A stretch of DNA of 64,000 nucleotides. Source: a bacterium (lineage in GTDB: Bacteria; Patescibacteriota; Saccharimonadia; Saccharimonadales; UBA4665). The stretch spans positions 154,790 through 218,789 of the forward strand of contig JAJZJS010000001.1 in assembly GCA_021810025.1 (NCBI GenBank). Reading direction: 5' to 3'. A program made the translations under genes and the position numbers. Every line of letters starts with the position of its first letter. Within the stretch, counting starts at the first letter, position 1. A model generated the notes under the pieces. The model was not told the DNA's origin, did not search any database, and was given only the letters and a program-made list of their open reading frames with translations. This document shows, piece by piece, positions 12,548 through 43,027 of the stretch.

Positions 12548-12623
12548 TGGTGGGGGCGGTAGGAATCGAACCTACTACCAAGCGGTTATGAGCCGCCTGC
12601 TCTAACCGATGAGCTACGCCCCC
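12548..12623 (-). tRNA. tRNA with CAT anticodon, probably tRNA-Ile2 (lysidine-dependent)
   Basis: The reverse complement GGGGGCGTAGCTCATCGGTTAGAGCAGGCGGCTCATAACCGCTTGGTAGTAGGTTCGATTCCTACCGCCCCCACCA folds as a cloverleaf with a perfect acceptor stem and encoded CCA. The anticodon arm GGCGG-CTCATAA-CCGCT plus TGGT variable loop resembles my recollection of E. coli ileX more than metT. Confidence 0.85.
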
Positions 12624-13193: not shown

Positions 13194-13268
13194 CGCGGGG
13201 TGGAGCAGCGGCAGCTCGATTGGCTCATAACCAATAGGTCGCAGGTTCGAGTCCTGCCCCCGCAACCA
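13194..13268 (+). tRNA. tRNA-fMet (CAT), initiator type
   Basis: CGCGGGGTGGAGCAGCGGCAGCTCGATTGGCTCATAACCAATAGGTCGCAGGTTCGAGTCCTGCCCCCGCAACCA has the C1xA72 mismatch diagnostic of bacterial initiators. Only two of the three canonical anticodon-stem G:C pairs are present (stem ATTGG/CCAAT). CCA is encoded. Confidence 0.9.
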
Positions 13269-19473: not shown

Positions 19474-19572
19474 ATGAGCGTGATAGGAACGAATTGGAAC
19501 CAAATTAAGTCCGAATTAATAACTATGAGGGAAATAGTTAAGACAGTTAGAGGAGAACAATACTATGTTTAG
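19474..19572 (+). CDS. 32-aa micro-ORF, paralogue 1 (MSVIGTNWNQIKSELITMREIVKTVRGEQYYV)
   Basis: Hand-translated. A second copy at 20676-20780 conserves the peptide pattern although the DNA has diverged after the first 28 nt. Confidence 0.35.
   Translation: MSVIGTNWNQIKSELITMREIVKTVRGEQYYV
19478..19505 (+). repeat. 28-nt perfect direct repeat, copy 1 (GCGTGATAGGAACGAATTGGAACCAAAT)
   Basis: Identical to 20683-20710. Confidence 0.9.
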
Positions 19573-19574
19573 TT

Positions 19575-19808
19575 TTAGTTTATTTCGAGTATAATTTTTA
19601 GTTTTTCTTTGACTTCATTGAGTTTTGCTTCTGTAATTACTCCAAGCTCTCGTTTTATCTTAGCCTTATCAAGTGTTGCTATTTTGTCTGGACGAATAAA
19701 ACTATTAATTACAATTGATCCAACATTATTTAGTATGATAAAGGAATGAACAATGATGATATTGAACATAATGCTGTTTTGTGAATAAGGCGATCTAGCA
19801 ATAAACGT
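19575..19808 (-). pseudogene. MazF/PemK-family toxin remnant (5'-truncated)
   Basis: The C-terminal block SFIRPDKIATLDKAKIKRELGVITEAKLNEVKEKLKIILE matches the MazF pattern (q)iRtlDk.Rl.k.lG.ls...l..v. The N-terminal 25-30 aa, including the conserved G-D/E region, are missing, and the frame closes at 19809-19811. Confidence 0.55.
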
Positions 19809-19874
19809 TTACTTATAAATAAGTTTGCCTCCATCAATGATTATCCGTCACCCCAATATCCTATTATTATTTTT

Positions 19875-20474
19875 ATGGCAGGTTCTCCAGGAGCAGGACA
19901 ATCTGAATTCGTAAAACAATATAAAAAGTCTGTAGAAATAGTTGTGGGTTCACCGCCAGTAATAATTGATCCAGATGCTATTAGAGAAGACTTGCCTGGT
20001 TATACAGGTGCCAATTCGTATATTTTCCAAAGGCCAAAATCAATAGTTGTTGATGATCTTTTCCATTCGGTTTTAAATAATAATCAAAGCGCAATCATAG
20101 ATAGTACCTTTTCAGAATTTACTCGAGCTAAGCATAATATTGATAAAGTTTTAATTAAGTACCCAGTTGTAAGCATTTCTTATATATTTCAGCATCCGCT
20201 TATTGCATGGCATTTTACTCAGATTAGAGAAGCGGTAGAAGGTAGAAATATAAGAAAAATTGATTTTATAAATAAATTTTTAGGGGCTAGAGAAACCGTA
20301 AACAGAGTAAAGAAAGCATATGGAAAAAAAGTTCAACTAAACTTAGTTTTAAAAGACTATAAGGATACCCAATCTAATAAAGCTGTTGAAAAAGTATTTA
20401 ATAGCGTAAGTAATGTTAAAGAATGCATTGATTTTCCGTATACTAAAGAAAGTTTGGAAAGGTTATTAAAATGA
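19875..20474 (+). CDS. zeta-toxin-like P-loop kinase, probably inactive (Walker A Lys replaced by Gln, N-terminus missing)
   Basis: PIIIFMAGSPGAGQSEF corresponds to the zeta/PezT Walker A G-x-x-G-x-G-K-S/T but carries Q. It is followed by IIDPDAIREDLPGY and AIIDSTFSE. The frame is open upstream only to 19785, with no upstream start, and abuts the MazF remnant head-to-head. Confidence 0.5.
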   Translation: MAGSPGAGQSEFVKQYKKSVEIVVGSPPVIIDPDAIREDLPGYTGANSYIFQRPKSIVVDDLFHSVLNNNQSAIIDSTFSEFTRAKHNIDKVLIKYPVVSISYIFQHPLIAWHFTQIREAVEGRNIRKIDFINKFLGARETVNRVKKAYGKKVQLNLVLKDYKDTQSNKAVEKVFNSVSNVKECIDFPYTKESLERLLK

Positions 20475-20615
20475 GATTACTACAAAGTAAAAAACAAGAC
20501 TTCCTGAAATTACCAAAAAAAAGAACAAAGAAAGCTACTTCTTAAGGCGGCTAAGTTTGCTAATGCTGAACAAAAAAGGCTCGAAAACAAATATTTACGG
20601 CTTCAGACGCAGTAA
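20471..20615 (+). pseudogene. small basic ORF interrupted at an A8 homopolymer, start coupled (ATGA) to the zeta-like gene
   Basis: Frame 1 reads MRLLQSKKQDFLKLPKKRTKKATS* (stop 20543-20545). After the A8 run (20515-20522) the +1 frame reads EQRKLLLKAAKFANAEQKRLENKYLRLQTQ* (stop 20613-20615). Loss of one A would fuse them into a protein of about 47 aa. Confidence 0.35.
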
Positions 20616-20675
20616 AAATAGTATTATTCTATAACCCTAAAATAGGTTAATTAAACTAATTAATACTATCTGTTA

Positions 20676-20780
20676 ATGGTAGGCGTGATAGGAACGAATT
20701 GGAACCAAATAAAACGAGAGCTGATAGATATGTACCAAATAGCTAAACAGGTTAGAAAAGAAACTCTAGTAAATGTATGA
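20676..20780 (+). CDS. 34-aa micro-ORF, paralogue 2 (MVGVIGTNWNQIKRELIDMYQIAKQVRKETLVNV)
   Basis: Hand-translated. It shares VIGTNWNQIK.ELI.M..I.K.VR.E with the ORF at 19474-19572. Confidence 0.35.
   Translation: MVGVIGTNWNQIKRELIDMYQIAKQVRKETLVNV
20683..20710 (+). repeat. 28-nt perfect direct repeat, copy 2
   Basis: Identical to 19478-19505. Confidence 0.9.
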
Positions 20781-20945
20781 GTGAATATACATAAACCATG
20801 GATAATTATCCAAGTGGAAAATATTTATTAGGAAAAGAATTAAAGATGTTCAATGATTTAGTTAATAAAACAAACAATTGGCACTAAGGTGGAGAGATTT
20901 GACAAAAATCTTTACCCTAAACTCTCCAATAGAAAAATGGTTAAT

Positions 20946-21638
20946 TTATAAACTTTCACAATTGTTAATTCCTTGTTGAATTTGATTTAATTCAGTTGTC
21001 AAAGAATTTATAGCACTACTTAAAGAGGCATATTGATTACTATATGCTTGAGTTATTTCACCGGCAGTTGCTCCTGAATAGCCACTTTCTTGATTTGCTG
21101 CATTAGGAAGATTTGCCAAAGAGTTTTCGGTTGATGTTAATTGCTGTTCCAAGCTCGAAAAGTTAGAATAATTCGGTATGTTATTTAGGCAAGATAGTAT
21201 TGCAGTTTGGCTTTGATTTGTTGTTGAATAAGTACTTAGGTTTTGTTGATCAGTATTGTATTGTTGTTGATATTGTTGATATTGTGCTTCTTCTTGTTGA
21301 ATCTCTTGCTCCATCTGATTATAGTTGTTTTGTTGTTGATTTGCAGCATTTTGAGCATTGAGTGTATCTTGGTTGGCCTGATCTTGGTATTCTTGTGCCA
21401 GAGCTTTATCTTGTTGATATTGTGCTTCTTCTTGTTTGAGAGTAGATTGTTGATTGGTTGGTGAGGGGGTAGTAGAGATAGAATTTTTATTTATTTCATT
21501 TGGTTGTTGACTTTTCTGATAGTGAGAAGAGGTATCTTTAATATTTACTGTGCTTGGACTATGGATATGAGTCAGTAAAGTACTGATAACCAATAATGAT
21601 AATAATGCTCCTCCAATAATGCCAAAAACTTTTTTCAT
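20946..21638 (-). CDS. hypothetical N-terminally anchored Q/N-rich coiled-coil protein with internal repeats
   Basis: 230 aa with the signal/TM helix IIGGALLSLLVISTLL and a Q/N-rich body containing a duplicated QEEAQYQQ unit. The underlying DNA repeat GTTGATATTGTGCTTCTTCTTGTT occurs at about 21273 and about 21413. Confidence 0.6.
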   Translation of the reverse strand: MKKVFGIIGGALLSLLVISTLLTHIHSPSTVNIKDTSSHYQKSQQPNEINKNSISTTPSPTNQQSTLKQEEAQYQQDKALAQEYQDQANQDTLNAQNAANQQQNNYNQMEQEIQQEEAQYQQYQQQYNTDQQNLSTYSTTNQSQTAILSCLNNIPNYSNFSSLEQQLTSTENSLANLPNAANQESGYSGATAGEITQAYSNQYASLSSAINSLTTELNQIQQGINNCESL

Positions 21639-21809
21639 AAAATACTTTGTACTTCTATAGTGTAATTCTAAATAAATTGTACTCCAGATATAACATTTTT
21701 CATATTTTCAAACGATTCATTTTCTATTATTTTATGATTTGTCATAATCATTCGGTTAAATTGAATTTAAAAAAGCTGTTATTTATGATTAAGAATAACA
21801 TGGTATCTT

Positions 21810-22745
21810 TTAAAACACCTCTCTTGGTCGTGAACCGCTAGCTTTACCAATAATCTTTCTTTCCTCCATATCTTCTAAATATCTAGCGGCCTGGCTATAA
21901 CCAATCCCCAATTCTCTTTGTAACAAAGAACTACTTGCTATTTTATATTCTCGAACAATCTTAATTGCATCTTCTAGCGTTGCATCTTTTCCCTTAAGTC
22001 TATTAATCAATCCTCTCTCTTCCATTATTTTAACTAATTCCAATGCCCTAGACTTCGAAATATGCAATCTATTTACCAAGTTATCGACAGATGGTCTTCC
22101 TACTGAATTTAGCATATTTATAGAATCTTCAATGTCTATTTCTAACTCTGATTTTTTTTCTTTTACCATTTTTAGATATTTATCATTTAAACTTTTCAAT
22201 TCAGCATGCAATTCATTAAGAATACTCCATCTACTATCACCCATGGAATTAACATATGAATCGTCAGATGGAAATGGTGAATCTAAATTATATAACGTTC
22301 TCATTGTTGCCAAATTATTTGTGTAAAAACCTCTTTTTTCAAAACCATCCCTTACTTTTACATATTCATTTTCTATTTCTTTTGTACGCTCTTCAATGTT
22401 TTTTATATACATCTCTTGAATGTTTACGAGTTCTTTTTTAGTATATAATTTTGGCTTATCGTCATTAATGCTTTGTATTTTTTTAGTTTTAAATAGCTCG
22501 TTTTTTAATCCTTCCAAACGTATTTTTTCTCTAAGCACTTCAATTTGGTTTGTTCTTAAATTACTTAAAAAGTCTAAATATGCCATATCACATTCTTGTT
22601 GGGTCAGAGAGTCTTTATAGGTCTGAGAATTTAAGTATTTTTGTTGAGCTATGGCAATATTATTATTAGAGTTCTGTTGTATTGCTCTATAAATAAAATA
22701 TCCTACAATTATTACTGCCAGAATTAACCAAAACATAATATCCAT
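21810..22745 (-). CDS. membrane-anchored coiled-coil protein with a C-terminal FtsK-gamma winged-helix domain and no translocase motor
   Basis: The C-terminus DATLEDAIKIVREYKIASSSLLQRELGIGYSQAARYLEDMEERKIIGKASGSRPREVF matches the FtsK gamma pattern (aS.SllQR.l.iGY.rAar..d.mEe.giig...gsk.ReV) closely. It is preceded by a second wHTH-like segment, and there is an N-terminal TM helix FWLILAVIIVGYFIY. No Walker A/B motifs are present. I chose the start at ATG 22745; the track ORF extends to 22811 and would overlap the divergent gene. Confidence 0.7.
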   Translation of the reverse strand: MDIMFWLILAVIIVGYFIYRAIQQNSNNNIAIAQQKYLNSQTYKDSLTQQECDMAYLDFLSNLRTNQIEVLREKIRLEGLKNELFKTKKIQSINDDKPKLYTKKELVNIQEMYIKNIEERTKEIENEYVKVRDGFEKRGFYTNNLATMRTLYNLDSPFPSDDSYVNSMGDSRWSILNELHAELKSLNDKYLKMVKEKKSELEIDIEDSINMLNSVGRPSVDNLVNRLHISKSRALELVKIMEERGLINRLKGKDATLEDAIKIVREYKIASSSLLQRELGIGYSQAARYLEDMEERKIIGKASGSRPREVF

Positions 22746-22796
22746 GCTTATAATACAACTGAAATTAATTTTAATAAATAGTATAATTAAGGTGTT

Positions 22797-23207
22797 ATGA
22801 CTATAAGACAAAGAAAAGTAATAAAAGAATTAGTGGAATATGGTGGAACTATGTCCTCTGCCATGAGAAAAGCAGGATATTCTGATGCTATGATAAAAAA
22901 TCCTCAAAAAGTAACCAAATCTAAAGGCTTTAAAGAAATTTTAGAAATTATGGGAATAAATGATAATGCTCTTGCTAAGACCCTTAAGGAAGGTCTTGAG
23001 GCTGTTAAGATTGTAAAATTACGTAATACATATACTGCTATACCAGACTTTTCTACCAGACATAAATTTCTTGAAACGACATTAGAACTTAAGGGATATA
23101 TAGGTCGTAATTCTAAACCTAATTTAGATAATGTTAATGTTGTTTTTGTGAATAATATTCCCAGACCTTCTTTTGATAAAAAAACAGTAAAACAATTAGA
23201 AAAATGA
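22797..23207 (+). CDS. phage terminase small-subunit-like HTH protein
   Basis: The N-terminus IRQRKVIKELVEYGGTMSSAMRKAGYSDAMIKNPQKV follows the Terminase_2 pattern (L..kq..F..eY...gn...A...AGYS...A......l..n..V). Length is 136 aa, with TATAAT and AAGGTG signals upstream. Confidence 0.45.
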   Translation: MTIRQRKVIKELVEYGGTMSSAMRKAGYSDAMIKNPQKVTKSKGFKEILEIMGINDNALAKTLKEGLEAVKIVKLRNTYTAIPDFSTRHKFLETTLELKGYIGRNSKPNLDNVNVVFVNNIPRPSFDKKTVKQLEK

Positions 23208-23238
23208 ATGATCCTGTTGATAACTCCATTTTAAGCTT

Positions 23239-24018
23239 ATGATAGGTTCATTATCTGAGCCGAAGGATGCAACGCTCAATGATGTTATTAAGTTGCTAAA
23301 AATAGATTATGATATTGGATTGATTGTTAAGAAAAGAGTACTAAAAGATTGCAATAATTATTTAGATGGGACATATAGTCCTAGGATAATTAGGGGTGGC
23401 GGTAAACAAGACCCTGAACTTGAATTTATCTATCGTAATTGGTTTGAGGGAGTATTGGCTACTCTCAATTTTCCTATTATCCCACATAGGTACTTACATG
23501 ATTTTTCGTCGACTAGTTCTAGCATTAATCTTAATCTTGCACTTTCAGCAAATAGTTTTTCACAAGGTGAAAATTTAATTAACAAATCATTCGACGCTGC
23601 TCTAAAAGCTTTATCGATAATAATAGATAGACTTAAAAAAGAAGAATCTTCAAATATAAAAATAGTAAATCTTAAAAAGATAAAACAAAGCATTTATATC
23701 AATATTGAGCCTGACGGGGTTGATGTTAAATTACATGAATTTGAAGAGGGTTCGCCCTTAGAGCAACTTTTTGATTATGTTTATCTTCATCAAAACGAAA
23801 TAATAAGTGGAGACCAAATAAACCTAGATACAAGAGGATACAGCAAAAAACGTCATCTTTCAGAGGATTTTAGGGCTATGGGATTTAATAATAAACTCAA
23901 GAAATTATTCTTTTCAATATGTACTTCTATGGAAGTAAAGATGAATATAAAATCAAATATTGCTTCGGAGAATCTCAAAGAACTTTTAATCGGACTCAAA
24001 TCGGATTTAAACAAATAG
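23239..24018 (+). CDS. hypothetical protein
   Basis: 259-aa ORF with no recognisable motif; island cargo. Confidence 0.55.
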   Translation: MIGSLSEPKDATLNDVIKLLKIDYDIGLIVKKRVLKDCNNYLDGTYSPRIIRGGGKQDPELEFIYRNWFEGVLATLNFPIIPHRYLHDFSSTSSSINLNLALSANSFSQGENLINKSFDAALKALSIIIDRLKKEESSNIKIVNLKKIKQSIYINIEPDGVDVKLHEFEEGSPLEQLFDYVYLHQNEIISGDQINLDTRGYSKKRHLSEDFRAMGFNNKLKKLFFSICTSMEVKMNIKSNIASENLKELLIGLKSDLNK

Positions 24019-24111
24019 TTTTGCTAAATTAACACTTTAATTATGTATTAGACCAAGATTTAAAATCGGACTTTCCTAACTAAGCTTATCTAATAACCTA
24101 TAGTCGGTAGT

Positions 24112-24423
24112 ATGACAAATGGCATTAAAGAAATACTTAATAATTCTCAGTTGGCAAATGATTCATTTAAAAAAAGAGATTTAGTTAAGAATGTTTCACT
24201 TGATGAAGTCGATAGATTATCGGATGAACTAGTTAGGATCTACAAAAACCCTAGTTATAAAAAGTGGTATTGCAAAGCAATTTATAGGTTTGGAGCTCAA
24301 CAAATCCGTGATTGGATGGCTCGAGCAAGCGATGGTAAATACCCAGAGAGATTATTTACTACTTACGTAAATCAGGCCAATGGTTTTATTAGGGGAGATG
24401 GACAAAATGTTGATCTCCGATAA
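24112..24423 (+). CDS. hypothetical protein
   Basis: 103-aa ORF. The segment KKWYCKAIYRFGAQQIRDWMARASDGKYPERLF feels like replication- or DNA-binding-associated helical modules, but I cannot assign a family. Confidence 0.5.
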   Translation: MTNGIKEILNNSQLANDSFKKRDLVKNVSLDEVDRLSDELVRIYKNPSYKKWYCKAIYRFGAQQIRDWMARASDGKYPERLFTTYVNQANGFIRGDGQNVDLR

Positions 24424-24562
24424 ACCAATTATAACCATTAAAGAAGCCAGAAAATTATTAGGAAAAGATTTTAGGCATTTAGCAGATGGACAAATAGAGG
24501 ATTTGATAGCCTTATTAAATAGTATTGCTATAGATAAAATAATTGATTCGGTTCCAAATTAG
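24380..24562 (+). CDS. hypothetical small protein directly upstream of the recombinase (candidate directionality or regulatory factor)
   Basis: ORF of 52-60 aa; the more likely start is ATG 24407 (MLISDKPIITIKEARKLLGK...). It overlaps the end of the previous gene. Its position immediately 5' of int is the only functional hint. Confidence 0.4.
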   Translation: MVLLGEMDKMLISDKPIITIKEARKLLGKDFRHLADGQIEDLIALLNSIAIDKIIDSVPN

Positions 24563-24608
24563 AAATCGATAGATGCAAATAAAAGACTAATAATGTTAAA
24601 ATGATTCC

Positions 24609-26153
24609 ATGAGTGTAGGAATCATCTATACAAGAGTTTCAACAAAAGAACAGGCAGAGAAACGATTAAGTTTAGATAACCAAGAAAAAGAGTGCAAAGC
24701 ATTTGCATATAAGCAACAAAATATACAAATTCCAGATATAAATATATTTAGTGATAGAGGAGAATCTGCTAAATTTGCAGATCGTCCTGAACTACAGAGA
24801 ATGCTCCAATTTGTTAAAAACAATAAGGGAAAGATAGAAGTTTTATATATCTGGAAAATCGATAGATTAGCAAGAAACTTAGGAGACTATTATGGGATTA
24901 AGGTTGCTCTTGGGAAGTATGGAGTAAAGATAGTATCGGTTACAGAGCCCATAGACGATGATCCAGTGGGAAGATTTCTAGAAGCCATATTAGCTGCTGC
25001 AGCTCAATTTGATAATGAAATTAGAGCCATTAGAAGTGTAACAGGCATGAGACAAAGAGTTGAACAAGGAGAATGGCCTCATAGTGCACCGATAGGTTAT
25101 ATAAAACGAAACAGGAGCGTAGTTATTGATTCAATATATGGATCTAAAGTACAAGATGTTCTTAATAAGTTTGCAACAGGACTTTATAGTGTAACCGATA
25201 TTTCTCGTTATGCATTCGAGATAGGCATTAAAACAAAGAGCGGTAAGCCAAAATCATACGAGGCAATGAAAAAGCTCCTCATAAATTTCTTCTATTCTGG
25301 TTATACTAAAAATAAACTTAGCGATAAGGTTATCAAGGGCAGACATACTCCCTTAGTTGATGAAGAAATTATTTATAAGAATATAGATATTATCAACAAA
25401 AATAAAAAAATTATCGTAATAAAAGGAGATGATCTTTATTCTCTTAGAGGAACATTGCTTTGTACTAATTGCGGAAATAAATTAACGGCTAGTGCACCAA
25501 GAGGAAGAAGTAGAAACTACTCATTATATCAATGTGGCCGTAAGACGTGTACTAGAGCCATTACAGGTAAAAAAGCTAGCGTAGACGTAGATAAAGTTCA
25601 TAAACAATTTAGAGAGCTTCTAGAAGCTCGTAGACCGTTAAATAAAGGAATTGCAAGACTGTACAAGACCTTAGTAATAAAAGCATGGAATGATGAGTAT
25701 GGAAAAGCTCTAGAAACTTCTACACAAGTTAATCGTGAAATAGAGACGTATAAAGAGCTTAGATTCTCGACAAATCAAAAATTTATTGCAGATAAGATTA
25801 CCGAAGAAGACAAGAATGAACAAATAAATAGATTGGATGAAAAAATAGAAACTTTAGAACAAGAAAAGGTCGAAATGGACAGTTACGTTAAAGAAAAAGA
25901 ACAGGTAGTAGATGAAGCTATGACTTTTATTCAGACTCCCGATATTTTCTGGAACCGAGCCAGTACAAGAAGTAGGCGAGCTATTCAGTCATTACTTTTT
26001 CCATCCGGAATACCTTATGATTTTGAAACCGGATTTGGAACCACAGAAGATATAGATTCCTATCTGTTATTAAACAAAATTACTGAAAAAAAAGCAAAAA
26101 AAGACGATTTGGTAGCGACGAGTGGACTTGAACCACTGACCCCAGGCTTATGA
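24609..26153 (+). CDS. large serine recombinase (serine integrase)
   Basis: The resolvase catalytic domain reads VGIIYTRVSTKEQ...DRGESAK...IDRLARN. A recombinase domain follows, then a Cys-rich zinc ribbon (LLCTNCGNKL...YQCGRKTC) and a long coiled coil. Total length is 514 aa, and the last 44 nt are antisense to the tRNA. Confidence 0.9.
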   Translation: MSVGIIYTRVSTKEQAEKRLSLDNQEKECKAFAYKQQNIQIPDINIFSDRGESAKFADRPELQRMLQFVKNNKGKIEVLYIWKIDRLARNLGDYYGIKVALGKYGVKIVSVTEPIDDDPVGRFLEAILAAAAQFDNEIRAIRSVTGMRQRVEQGEWPHSAPIGYIKRNRSVVIDSIYGSKVQDVLNKFATGLYSVTDISRYAFEIGIKTKSGKPKSYEAMKKLLINFFYSGYTKNKLSDKVIKGRHTPLVDEEIIYKNIDIINKNKKIIVIKGDDLYSLRGTLLCTNCGNKLTASAPRGRSRNYSLYQCGRKTCTRAITGKKASVDVDKVHKQFRELLEARRPLNKGIARLYKTLVIKAWNDEYGKALETSTQVNREIETYKELRFSTNQKFIADKITEEDKNEQINRLDEKIETLEQEKVEMDSYVKEKEQVVDEAMTFIQTPDIFWNRASTRSRRAIQSLLFPSGIPYDFETGFGTTEDIDSYLLLNKITEKKAKKDDLVATSGLEPLTPGL

Positions 26154-26186
26154 GTCCTGTGCTCTAACCAGCTGAGCTACGCCGCC
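26110..26186 (-). tRNA. tRNA-Met (CAT), elongator type, with non-Watson-Crick pairs in the acceptor and anticodon stems
   Basis: The reverse complement is GGCGGCGTAGCTCAGCTGGTTAGAGCACAGGACTCATAAGCCTGGGGTCAGTGGTTCAAGTCCACTCGTCGCTACCA. The D and T stems are perfect, while the acceptor stem has G1.U72 and G5.U68 and the anticodon stem has A31.G39. The D arm and variable loop resemble E. coli metT as I recall it. Confidence 0.8.
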
Positions 26187-26282: not shown

Positions 26283-27200
26283 TTGGGTATACTTATGGAT
26301 AGTATGTTGAGCCCTATTATTATCAAAGAACCTTCTTTAGTTGCCGTAAGTGGTGGCGTGGATTCGGTTGTCTTACTCCATTTACTTCTAAGTTCCAATA
26401 TAGACAATAAGCTTAAACTAACTGTTGCTCATTTTGATCATGGGATTAGGCCGAATTCTGATCAGGATCTTCGGTTCGTACAAAATCTGGCCAAAAAATA
26501 TGGACTGCAATTTGTATCAGATAAAGCTTATCTAGGACCAAATGCTTCAGAAGATGATGCCCGTAAAGCACGTTATCAATTTTTTGAACAGGCTTTAATT
26601 GATACTAAGTTGACTAAACTTATAACTGCTCATCACCAAGATGACTTAATTGAAACAGGTTTGATTAATTTAATCAGAGGAACTAAAAGTCGTGGTTTAA
26701 GTGCCATGATAGATAATCCAAATATTAAACGACCTTTACTAGCATACCCTAAGCAATCCCTGATTAGATATGCCCAAAAAAATAAACTAGTCTGGAAGGA
26801 GGATAATACTAATCAAGATCTTAAATACTTACGCAATTACCTTCGAATTAAGATTGTTCCTAAGATGTCTAATGAGCAACGACAGGCAATGGTTAAAATC
26901 GCATTCAATTCCAGTCAAATTAACCGAAAGGTCGAACAAGAATTAACACATATCTTTCATTCAATTGACATAAAACACATCGAAAGAGAATGGTATAATA
27001 GTTTAGATTTAACGATTCAACGTGAAATAATTGCATTTATGTTGCGTCAACATGAATATAGGAACTATTCTGAAAAAAGTTTAGAACGATTAGCAGTCTT
27101 ATTAAAAGTTGCTCAATCTGGTAAGTTTATTGAGGTTAATCAGTGCTTAGGCTTTAAAATAACTGAGAAATCACTGGCACTCATTACTAAAGAGCGCTAG
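26283..27200 (+). CDS. tilS: tRNA(Ile)-lysidine synthase
   Basis: PP-loop VAVSGGVDSVVLLHLL, plus HFDHGIR and TAHHQDDLIET. The probable start is ATG 26295. Confidence 0.85.
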   Translation: MGILMDSMLSPIIIKEPSLVAVSGGVDSVVLLHLLLSSNIDNKLKLTVAHFDHGIRPNSDQDLRFVQNLAKKYGLQFVSDKAYLGPNASEDDARKARYQFFEQALIDTKLTKLITAHHQDDLIETGLINLIRGTKSRGLSAMIDNPNIKRPLLAYPKQSLIRYAQKNKLVWKEDNTNQDLKYLRNYLRIKIVPKMSNEQRQAMVKIAFNSSQINRKVEQELTHIFHSIDIKHIEREWYNSLDLTIQREIIAFMLRQHEYRNYSEKSLERLAVLLKVAQSGKFIEVNQCLGFKITEKSLALITKER

Positions 27201-27234
27201 AATATATAATTAAAAGGTGTATAATTAATTTAGT

Positions 27235-33322: not shown

Positions 33323-33360
33323 CTAGCACTCTTGACTACAGAGTGCCAGAAGGGTATAAT
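33323..33360 (+). promoter_or_regulatory. CIRCE operator (HrcA site) overlapping a consensus sigma70-type promoter of hrcA-grpE
   Basis: CTAGCACTC-N9-GAGTGCCAG (33323-33349), compared with the consensus TTAGCACTC-N9-GAGTGCTAA. The -35 TTGACT (33332-33337) lies inside the spacer, followed by 17 nt and then TATAAT (33355-33360). Confidence 0.85.
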
Positions 33361-33377
33361 AGCGCTAGGTAAACATT

Positions 33378-34589: not shown

Positions 34590-34627
34590 CTAGCACTCTT
34601 GACTAATGAGTGCTAGTAGACTAATAT
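34590..34627 (+). promoter_or_regulatory. second CIRCE operator overlapping a sigma70-type promoter of dnaK-dnaJ
   Basis: CTAGCACTC-N9-GAGTGCTAG (34590-34616), with -35 TTGACT (34599-34604), 17 nt, then TAATAT (34622-34627). It begins 2 nt after the grpE stop. Confidence 0.85.
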
Positions 34628-34694
34628 AAAAAGTATCTTAGCGGTTAACTATTTAGACTGCTAAATATATTAATAAAGTAATTGGAGATTTAAA

Positions 34695-40780: not shown

Positions 40781-40850
40781 AACTTATATTAACATGCTGA
40801 ATTTTATAAGCTTTACTAAGAATATATTGCGTTTTGCCTTTTCTTGCTAA

Positions 40851-40943
40851 GCTACTCTTGTTTATATAGATTGTCCAGAAGTACTCTCCATCTAAGGAGT
40901 TCTTGTGTGAAAATATATAACTTATTTCCTTGGTGAACCCCCA
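40851..40943 (-). repeat. about 91-nt direct repeat, copy A (degenerate ORF fragment)
   Basis: ...CCAGAAGTACTCTCCATCTAAGGAGTTCTTGTGTGAAAATATATAACTTATTTCCTTGGTGAACC... aligns with 42937-43027 with about 10 mostly transition differences. On the minus strand it encodes ...KEISYIFSHKNSLDGEYFWTIYINKS.... Confidence 0.8.
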
Positions 40944-42863: not shown

Positions 42864-42936
42864 ATCATTATTCTACAAGCTATAAGCTATAACTCCCACT
42901 AGGAATATATTGAACCTAACCTTCTCTTGTTCATTT

Positions 42937-43027
42937 GCTCTTGTTTGTATGGATTATCCAGAAGTACTCTCCATCTAAGAAGTTCTTGAGTGAAAGTATA
43001 TAACTTATTTCTTTGGTGGACCTCCAG
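42937..43027 (-). repeat. about 91-nt direct repeat, copy B (degenerate, frame-broken ORF fragment)
   Basis: Aligns with 40851-40943. The minus strand encodes ...STKEISYILSLKNFLDGEYFWIIHTNKSK*, and the flanking parts are in another frame. Confidence 0.8.

Follow-up and report, generated by a model that had tools for sequence, protein, structure and literature searches.

Integrases of archaeal viruses of the Sulfolobus spindle-shaped virus (SSV) type are tyrosine recombinases that carry the attachment (att) site of the mobile element, attP, inside the integrase gene; they target transfer RNA (tRNA) genes, share a long att stretch identical to the tRNA and, on integration, partition the gene into two large, inactivated parts. 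Tyrosine integrases also build islands at tRNA genes, reportedly at three sublocations distinguished by Williams in 2002: the anticodon loop, the T loop and the 3′ end. Mycobacteriophage BPs and its relatives likewise integrate at tRNA genes. In BPs, attP lies in the 3′ end of the repressor gene, and the repressor made by the prophage lacks 33 residues relative to its viral counterpart (PMC4557955). In the 64,000-nt stretch of DNA analysed here (the window, whose own numbering is used throughout), we assign positions 20677-26115 to an integrative element of 5.4 kb that belongs to a Candidatus Saccharimonadales bacterium and sits at the 3′ end of a tRNA-Met(CAU) gene, a reading to which we give a probability of roughly 0.85. 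The attP of this element lies within the gene for its own large serine recombinase, such that integration gives the enzyme a different C terminus.

As in SSV, the gene at this locus is partitioned, but the enzyme does not have tyrosine chemistry: 32 of 534 codons are detached, an intact open reading frame (ORF) of 514 codons is left and the shared core measures 6 nt. The integration-dependent immunity of BPs resembles the window system in that attP occupies the 3′ end of a gene and integration alters the C terminus of the product. There, however, the split gene encodes a repressor, the integrase is a tyrosine enzyme and the tail that is lost has been demonstrated to be an ssrA-like degradation tag, whereas here the serine recombinase itself is split and its lost tail is replaced by tRNA-encoded residues. 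Tyrosine islands at tRNA genes share with the locus a tRNA that is kept functional, an integrase gene beside it and the possibility of tandem arrays, but they carry a copy of the displaced tRNA segment as a direct repeat of tens of bases; in the window, nothing past the hexamer TGGTAG is duplicated. Phage-type large serine integrases (Listeria A118/LI, Bxb1, phiC31 and TP901-1) have the same domain order as the window enzyme, and likewise use short att sites with few shared bases and a 5-bp offset of a motif between attB and attP (PMC3783163). Their targets lie in the interior of protein-coding genes, whereas the target in the window is a tRNA 3′ end; the window system also differs in keeping a single conserved attB half-site and in having attP inside the recombinase coding sequence, which yields two protein forms according to integration state.

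According to a 2017 review, mobilizable elements with serine recombinases insert within genes and those with tyrosine enzymes at gene ends (PMC5704250), and the word tRNA is absent from a large survey of serine recombinase att sites (PMC10083194). Type II conjugative elements of Elizabethkingia anophelis are found at the 3′ end of tRNA-Leu-CAA, a few of them with serine recombinases; that study gives no att sites or mechanism and leaves the integrase unassigned for most elements (bioRxiv 10.1101/402107). The Elizabethkingia elements are from Bacteroidota, and distant Bacteroidota relatives of the window enzyme also end inside tRNAs. A reading of the window made from its letters alone (the sequence-only reading) had known of no described serine-integrase example; our full-text literature searches likewise found no published description of this arrangement, although one may exist.

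For 44 nt, from 26110 to 26153, the recombinase ORF runs through the tRNA 3′ half in antisense; it stops with a TGA at 26151-26153, which overlaps ATG at 26150-26152, the anticodon complement. Coordinates, ARAGORN and Rfam agree on this overlap, as the sequence-only reading had described it. Codons 1-502 (through ...DDLV) are element DNA, and the last 12 codons plus the stop come from the host tRNA in antisense. Via the neighbouring TilS protein, further contigs of the species were recovered, and most are identical to the window. One of them, L092 (ERZ27237490), carries a different cassette without a recombinase: the 5,427-nt cassette of the window and the 589-nt cassette of L092 are swapped exactly between two TGGTAG hexamers (flanking mismatches in the table). 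This hexamer is the only sequence common to attL, attR, the circular attP and the empty attB sites, and the breakpoints resolve to this short site. At a divergent junction in L087 (AAGCAG followed by GCGTG) only AG is retained, which points to AG as the exchanged dinucleotide.

Strand exchange takes place inside TGGTAG, where the element attP (...GATTTGGTAG followed by GCGTGATAGGAACGAATTGGAACC) is predicted to recombine with the tRNA 3′ end. The element supplies only the last few bases of the tRNA (...ACCA), and as these are identical to those replaced, the tRNA remains native and whole. With attP placed inside the 3′ end of the recombinase gene, the joined-end form encodes 533-534 aa; integration strands the 32 terminal codons at the element's opposite end and fuses the gene body in frame to the antisense of the tRNA, adding 12 tRNA-dictated residues that end at a TGA formed by the complement of A35, C34 and U33. 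On excision, the predicted circle junction reads ...AAAAAGACGATTTGGTAG followed by GCGTGATAGGAACGAATTGGAACC, and the predicted restored site ...CTATCTGTTAATGGTAG followed by CGACGAGTGGACTTGAACC.

The detached codons were found at the opposite end of the element, where they read GVIGTNWNQIKRELIDMYQIAKQVRKETLVNV and then a stop, directly after the TGGTAG hexamer at 20677-20682. The recombinase gene enters the tRNA via the same hexamer in the same frame (TTG GTA G.. at 26109-26115), and joining the two ends of the element gives a 534-aa protein, the length found for proteins of circular forms. The detached codons are homologous to the C terminus of 533-534-aa recombinases encoded on circle-closing contigs. 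Seven homologues have this long tail (P0007, P0012, P0016, P0025, P0028, P0111 and P0118; for example, ...LVGMVESNWNQIKRELITMWQIVNEIRKESPVTV), all of them on contigs of 3.5-6.4 kb. Long-tail proteins are scattered among those with tRNA-derived tails (P0111 is 86% identical to P0018 and P0028 76% identical to P0019), so that the tails mark two states of the element, not two clades. These data bear out two earlier claims: that the recombinase frame spans its own attachment site, with 32 in-frame codons at the far end and the joined form present on circle-closing contigs, and that the tail ...ATSGLEPLTPGL exists only in the integrated state, as the circle-closing contigs encode another C terminus.

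Seven DNA copies of the detached tail have their stop always at codon 33. Pairwise differences among them over codons 9-32 are distributed 106:84:250 at codon positions 1, 2 and 3, and the pattern is reversed over codons 1-8 (36:22:6). The pattern of the first eight codons fits constraint on the DNA of an att arm and not on protein, and that of the remainder indicates that the 32-codon tail is coding, a constraint which argues that the long form matters. The joined-form protein ends ...LV-GxxxxNWNQIKRELIxMWQIVxxxRKxxxVxV, a linker followed by a predicted amphipathic helix, in which the conserved ‘WN’ is just TGG AAC read as protein. In Acidobacteriota, sites are followed by tails such as LVDQNSASWNRVGLWLRRLGRLRNVA and a stop, and a helical tail after the W-N codons recurs there; the split-gene arrangement therefore extends beyond Saccharibacteria. 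Right after the stop of the detached tail lies a second tRNA-like motif, consisting of 12 nt and then (G/A)AACC (window 20781-20797; 3463-3483 in L001; 3996-4016 in L005). In the circular forms L001 and L005 this second motif reads GGACTTGAACC, the same as the T arm of tRNA-Met, at a spacing 2 nt nearer the stop than in the real tRNA; it might be left over from an earlier attP or serve as an accessory site.

The two forms of the protein may differ in how active or how stable they are. A bolder proposal, tentative and in our view rather unlikely, is that they constitute a built-in direction switch, in which the episomal form, with the helix, favours integration and the integrated, tRNA-tailed form permits excision or differs in stability; if true, an element of 4.5-6 kb could toggle without a separate directionality factor. 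Even odds, by comparison, can be given to the tail swap being neutral, a side effect of fitting attP into the gene end in so small an element, with both forms acting alike and a separate factor setting direction. The swapped part lies beyond the last conserved domain and behind a predicted disordered linker (residues 482-506 in a model of homologue P0007), the integrated tail is wholly dictated by the tRNA and so beyond tuning by selection, and small ORFs beside the recombinase gene could be directionality factors. Neutrality accords less well with the reach of the coding constraint, which extends well past the att arm of ~24 bp, or with the recurrence of the helical tail in Acidobacteriota. 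Large serine recombinases integrate by recombining attP with attB and need a directionality factor for excision; Pfam and PHROGs scans of the element ORFs detected no excisionase-like domain, although such a search is weak for proteins this small.

The long form is encoded by sequences that close on themselves. The P0007 contigs, from four samples, are circularly permuted versions of a single 4,499-bp sequence, with ends that overlap by 141, 141, 55 and 30 nt, and the P0016 contig closes at 6,325 bp. Both sequences encode the long recombinase form, and no tRNA was found in either. We infer that these are free circles and not head-to-tail arrays. It is nevertheless conceivable, if improbable, that the long form arises mainly at the junctions of chromosomal head-to-tail arrays and that the ‘circular’ contigs are collapsed tandem copies. 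An assembler cannot distinguish a circle from a tandem repeat, arrays of P′-type sites are common (three sites in L087, four in L150 and four in L017), and at 4198 in L087 a 3′ remnant of a recombinase (...NRLDLV) is fused to a tail within the chromosome. Set against this, the four permuted contigs start at arbitrary points and are unbroken at the att core, where breaks would probably occur had chromosomal flanks been present at comparable coverage, the circle-closing contigs lack host genes as well as a tRNA, and such elements can integrate only by way of a circular form.

In the chromosomal half-site, B′, the pentamer GAACC lies at 26130-26134, 15-19 nt from the core, and is the antisense of G52 G53 T54 T55 C56, the T-loop box. 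In the half-site of the element, P′, GAACC lies at 20702-20706, 20-24 nt from the core; the P′ arm thus copies the T-loop box 5 bp further out than the tRNA arm. We searched the upstream side of 58 tRNA-adjacent recombinase loci for their own core hexamer followed by their own T-arm pentamer, shifted outwards by 3-7 nt. All matches (10/10) fell at +5 and none at 3, 4, 6 or 7, against a roughly estimated chance expectation of ~0.1 match per shift. They comprise the window, L087 (two sites), L017 (Acidobacteriota, tRNA-Ala, four sites), L026 (tRNA-Met) and L053 (tRNA-Glu, two sites); among them, elements of Acidobacteriota occupy tRNA-Ala, tRNA-Met and tRNA-Glu. In the Listeria integrase, the motif of the zinc-ribbon domain lies 5 bp nearer the centre in attB than in attP (PMC3783163), and the outer motif of the window's half-sites is displaced in the same direction by the same distance. 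By analogy, the zinc-ribbon domain would read the T-loop box. The other attB half-site contains no position above 0.24 bits over 59 distinct left flanks. It appears, therefore, that specificity resides solely in the tRNA half of the chromosomal site, in which the CCA end and the T-loop box at fixed spacing are the recognizable features. A crossover in the T loop, with GGACTTGAACC in the tRNA against CGAATTGGAACC in the element, was considered and rejected: the stretch from core to motif is contiguous in the circular attP and absent from empty tRNAs.

The enzyme itself belongs, by domain order and fold match, with the large serine recombinases (serine integrases). The 514-aa ORF matches Pfam Resolvase (PF00239; E = 3.2e-31 over residues 5-156, above cut-off) and Recombinase (PF07508; 27.5 bits against a cut-off of 21.1), with Zn_ribbon_recom (PF13408) at 21.3 bits, under its cut-off of 25.3. 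R9 and the catalytic Ser11 are invariant in two family alignments, Cys285, 288, 309 and 314 occupy invariant or near-invariant columns, and the catalytic domain matches solved structures by sequence (3guv and TP901-1 integrase). The AlphaFold model of homologue P0007 (mean predicted local distance difference test score (pLDDT) 82) shows the catalytic and recombinase domains along with a zinc ribbon and, at 345-441, a long coiled coil formed by two long antiparallel helices (345-392 and 398-441); the structures that it matches best are recently solved complexes of full-length serine integrases with att DNA (Bxb1, phiC31 and 4KIS). A serine-bearing catalytic domain is thus followed by a recombinase domain and a zinc ribbon with an inserted coiled coil. 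The tail helix is modelled at residues 508-528 (pLDDT 55-63).

The sequence-only reading had explained the locus differently, as a crossover in the anticodon loop through which a copy carried by the element took the place of the native tRNA 3′ half, leaving the G.U and A.G pairs as scars of a chimaeric tRNA. The three pairs in question (G1.U72, G5.U68 and A31.G39) are indeed present in the target tRNA, which reads GGCGGCG...CGTCGCT-A-CCA with the anticodon stem CAGGA/GCCTG and scores 63.3 bits with the Rfam tRNA model against a gathering score of 29. In favour of a chimaera, every imperfect pair links one half of the tRNA to the other, the stop codon falls on the anticodon, the tRNA at L087, whose recombinase is 93% identical, has the same 3′ half as that of the window with three differences in the 5′ half, and two Logan contigs of the species (L094 and L096) begin at 26157, inside the anticodon stem. 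A chimaera is nonetheless refuted by comparison with other loci. Metagenome contigs were searched for exact matches to 56 nt of the tRNA 3′ half, with A or G allowed at position 68, which gave 73 loci, 72 of them with a complete tRNA. G1.U72 and A31.G39 occur in 72/72, and pair 5:68 is G-C in 65, G.U in 5 and A-U in 2 (G5-C68 in L088 and A5-U68 in L087). The non-Watson-Crick pairs are therefore features of the tRNA lineage, and G5.U68 is an ordinary intermediate of covariation.

This same 3′ half stands beside at least 59 distinct, unrelated left flanks, and at none of these metagenome loci does an intact recombinase read into the tRNA (the longest in-frame upstream ORF has 103 codons); judged by eye, many flanks resemble terminator hairpins, and about a dozen are recombinase remnants or mini-cassette ends. 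The breakpoints against L092 lie at TGGTAG, corresponding to tRNA positions 71-76 (C71 U72 A73 C74 C75 A76), and not in the anticodon. L092, which lacks the recombinase element, has an identical tRNA, albeit with the 589-nt cassette at its site, as do four other metagenome loci. Searches of the window found no displaced native 3′ half and, at up to three mismatches, the tRNA and its 3′ half only once each; the island yielded neither the acceptor strand predicted for the native tRNA nor GGCGGCG. The sequence at the left end is contiguous with the core in circular forms, and is thus element DNA instead of a displaced piece of tRNA. The ends of L094 and L096 at 26157 probably reflect a branch in the assembly graph, caused by 30-mers of the conserved tRNA 5′ half that are shared between co-occurring Saccharibacteria. 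Finally, the stop falls on the anticodon because the CCA end sets the reading frame (TTG GTA G..), in which the complement of A35-C34-U33 reads TGA; a UAC anticodon gives TAA in the same frame, as at the tRNA-Val locus L037. Its position thus follows from geometry.

Integration at tRNA ends extends well beyond this locus. We listed 120 homologues with 33-93% identity, nearly all of 509-516 aa, and the tails of nearly all of them are antisense translations of tRNA 3′ halves (for example, LVAATGIEPVTLGL, LVAPTRIELVTSGL, VVGVVGIEPTTKRL and LVIPRGIEPLLPG). The alternation between GIEP and RIEL in these tails is covariation of the T stem, read as protein. In an alignment of 32 sequences, V502 is invariant and E508 is conserved in ≥90%; the short tail varies with the base of the host tRNA, ATS accompanying U68 and AAS accompanying C68. 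The V502 codon (GTN) overlaps the CCA end, and the E508 codon (GAA) is the antisense of the T-loop TTC. Scanning one genome per species with the family alignment captured generic resolvase patterns, with relatives of only 25-34% identity among the matches listed, from Bacteroidota, Acidobacteriota, Patescibacteria, Planctomycetota and other phyla. Among these matches, the ORF stops within an antisense tRNA at 43/73 evaluable loci, involving at least 15 anticodon species. No close relatives were found in IMG/VR, GenBank phages or PLSDB plasmids, where the best hit had ~30% identity in each. The overlap of recombinase and tRNA is accordingly a trait of the family. That it is incidental, with the att sites elsewhere and an ORF that merely lacks an earlier stop, might be argued from the AT-rich genome, in which an ORF could drift into a neighbouring gene, and from the reported insertion of serine-recombinase mobile elements within genes and not at tRNA ends (PMC5704250), but is hardly credible when the tRNA-derived tail recurs family-wide and across phyla in a frame fixed to CCA, with V502 and E508 kept, and when the element ends are defined exactly at the tRNA end.

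Several points weigh against our assignment of the locus as an integrated element with a split recombinase gene. The exact 534-aa joined protein is absent from a collection of 15 billion proteins, and excision of the window's own copy, its circle junction and restored attB included, is predicted from the element ends. The circle-closing contigs could be head-to-tail chromosomal arrays of the kind that occur in L087, L150 and L017. A truly empty site was not found in the window species, in which L092 still carries a mini-cassette, and the choice of AG as the exchanged dinucleotide derives from the one divergent junction in L087. By eye, the left (P) arm repeats the P′ arm in inverted form only weakly, if at all. 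The tail helix of the P0007 model is predicted with low confidence and without a docking site.

Table 1. Features of the element, its target and its variant in the same species, in window coordinates.
Feature	Position	Strand	Basis or remark
Older decayed element, left of the main element	19477..20676		Present in both variants of the species
attL core TGGTAG	20677..20682		Sequence; L092 breakpoint
Detached last 32 recombinase codons and TGA stop	20682..20780	+	In frame with ...DDLV on joining of the ends
P′ half-site	20683..20706		Sequence; same arm in circular forms L001 and L005
Cargo, six ORFs	20946..24562		230 aa (-), 333 aa (-), 136, 259, 103 and 60 aa (+)
Large serine recombinase gene, integrated-state form, 514 aa	24609..26153	+	ORF list
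attR core TGGTAG	26110..26115		Antisense of tRNA positions 76-71 (CCA, A73, U72, C71)
B′ half-site, 3′ acceptor strand and T arm of the tRNA	26116..26134		Sequence
Intact host tRNA-Met(CAU) gene with encoded CCA, integration target	26110..26186	-	ARAGORN; Rfam
Window against L092, 3,000 nt	left of TGGTAG at 20677		3 mismatches
Window against L092, 110 nt	right of TGGTAG at 20677		30 mismatches
Window against L092, 40 nt	left of TGGTAG at 26110		26 mismatches
Window against L092, 3,000 nt	rightwards from 26110		0 mismatches

Among the cargo, the 333-aa ORF has an FtsK gamma/winged-helix C terminus, which was the only cargo domain matched in the Pfam and PHROGs scans. To the left of the element lies the older, decayed one, which appears to be fixed, as it is present in both variants of the species. 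It includes a second copy of the P′ arm and tail (19477-19575; ...SVIGTNWNQIKSELITMREIVKTVRGEQYYV and a stop; repeat D3) with a mutated core (TTCATGA in place of ATGGTAG), a PemK-like fragment at 19575-19769 (-) (Pfam PemK_toxin, 3e-6) and an intact zeta-toxin gene at 19875-20474 (+) (Pfam Zeta_toxin, 1.7e-21). The cassette of L092 belongs to a further type: a 0.6-kb mini-cassette with the same ends and without a recombinase occurs at 9227-9815 in L092 and, in another species, at 6256-6851 in L087. It consists of a tail segment and a 139-aa gene that has a weak match to Peptidase_C39 (22.7 bits), and ends ...AAGCATAAGCGAAATGGTAG. Its recurrence in two species with the same ends implies a mobile unit without its own recombinase, and it resembles a passenger that full elements mobilize in trans with their recombinases. 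Repeated insertion at one tRNA end builds arrays, decayed remnants and such recombinase-less mini-cassettes. In about ten metagenome loci, counted by eye, right ends of the form ..AGCATAAGCGAAA followed by TGGTAG flank the tRNA.

The recombinase of L087 (GCA_027427715.1) is 93% identical to that of the window, and TilS homologues other than the window's own all have ≤49% identity, the L087 TilS not having been compared directly. This suggests a recent transfer of the element between distantly related Saccharimonadales, at the same tRNA next to tilS. In the window, the target tRNA lies divergently upstream of tilS and is one of three tRNAs with a CAU anticodon (12548-12623 (-), 13194-13268 (+) and 26110-26186 (-)). 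Judging by resemblance, it is probably the elongator tRNA-Met. The tRNA at 13194 has a C1/A72 mismatch, as is typical of initiators in bacteria; the one at 12548 resembles tRNA-Ile2, the TilS substrate. A weak Rfam match to the antisense RNA HPnc0260 at 26009-26144 (37.5 bits, below the gathering score of 59) was set aside, as it reflects only the tRNA-like segment.

Two further repeats were observed in the window. Repeat family D4 has copies at 27174-27212, 33323-33361 and 34590-34628, each consisting of the inverted repeat CTAGCACTC-N9-GAGTGC(C/T)AG and then a TATAAT-like sequence, and these sit upstream of ftsH, hrcA and dnaK. By its consensus, D4 resembles the CIRCE (controlling inverted repeat of chaperone expression) operator of the HrcA heat-shock regulon. 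A 152-nt direct repeat, D1, is present at 40792-40943 and 42875-43026, with 78% identity between copies 2,083 nt apart.

For annotation, the C-terminal ‘GIEP/GLEP’ tails found in databases represent tRNA antisense and not a protein motif. With no repeat of a tRNA fragment left behind, methods that seek a displaced tRNA fragment would miss elements of this kind. Serine integrases are widely used as genome-engineering tools, and the clade described here inserts at tRNA 3′ ends and leaves the tRNA undamaged; in the chromosomal site, a single half with sequence specificity appears to suffice. Nearly every tRNA shares the features that make up this half, which would explain moves of relatives between at least 15 tRNA species in several phyla; on the bolder, rather unlikely proposal above, the clade would recognize any tRNA via its CCA end and T-loop box. 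The integration-dependent C terminus would offer a natural test case for the control of directionality from within the protein.

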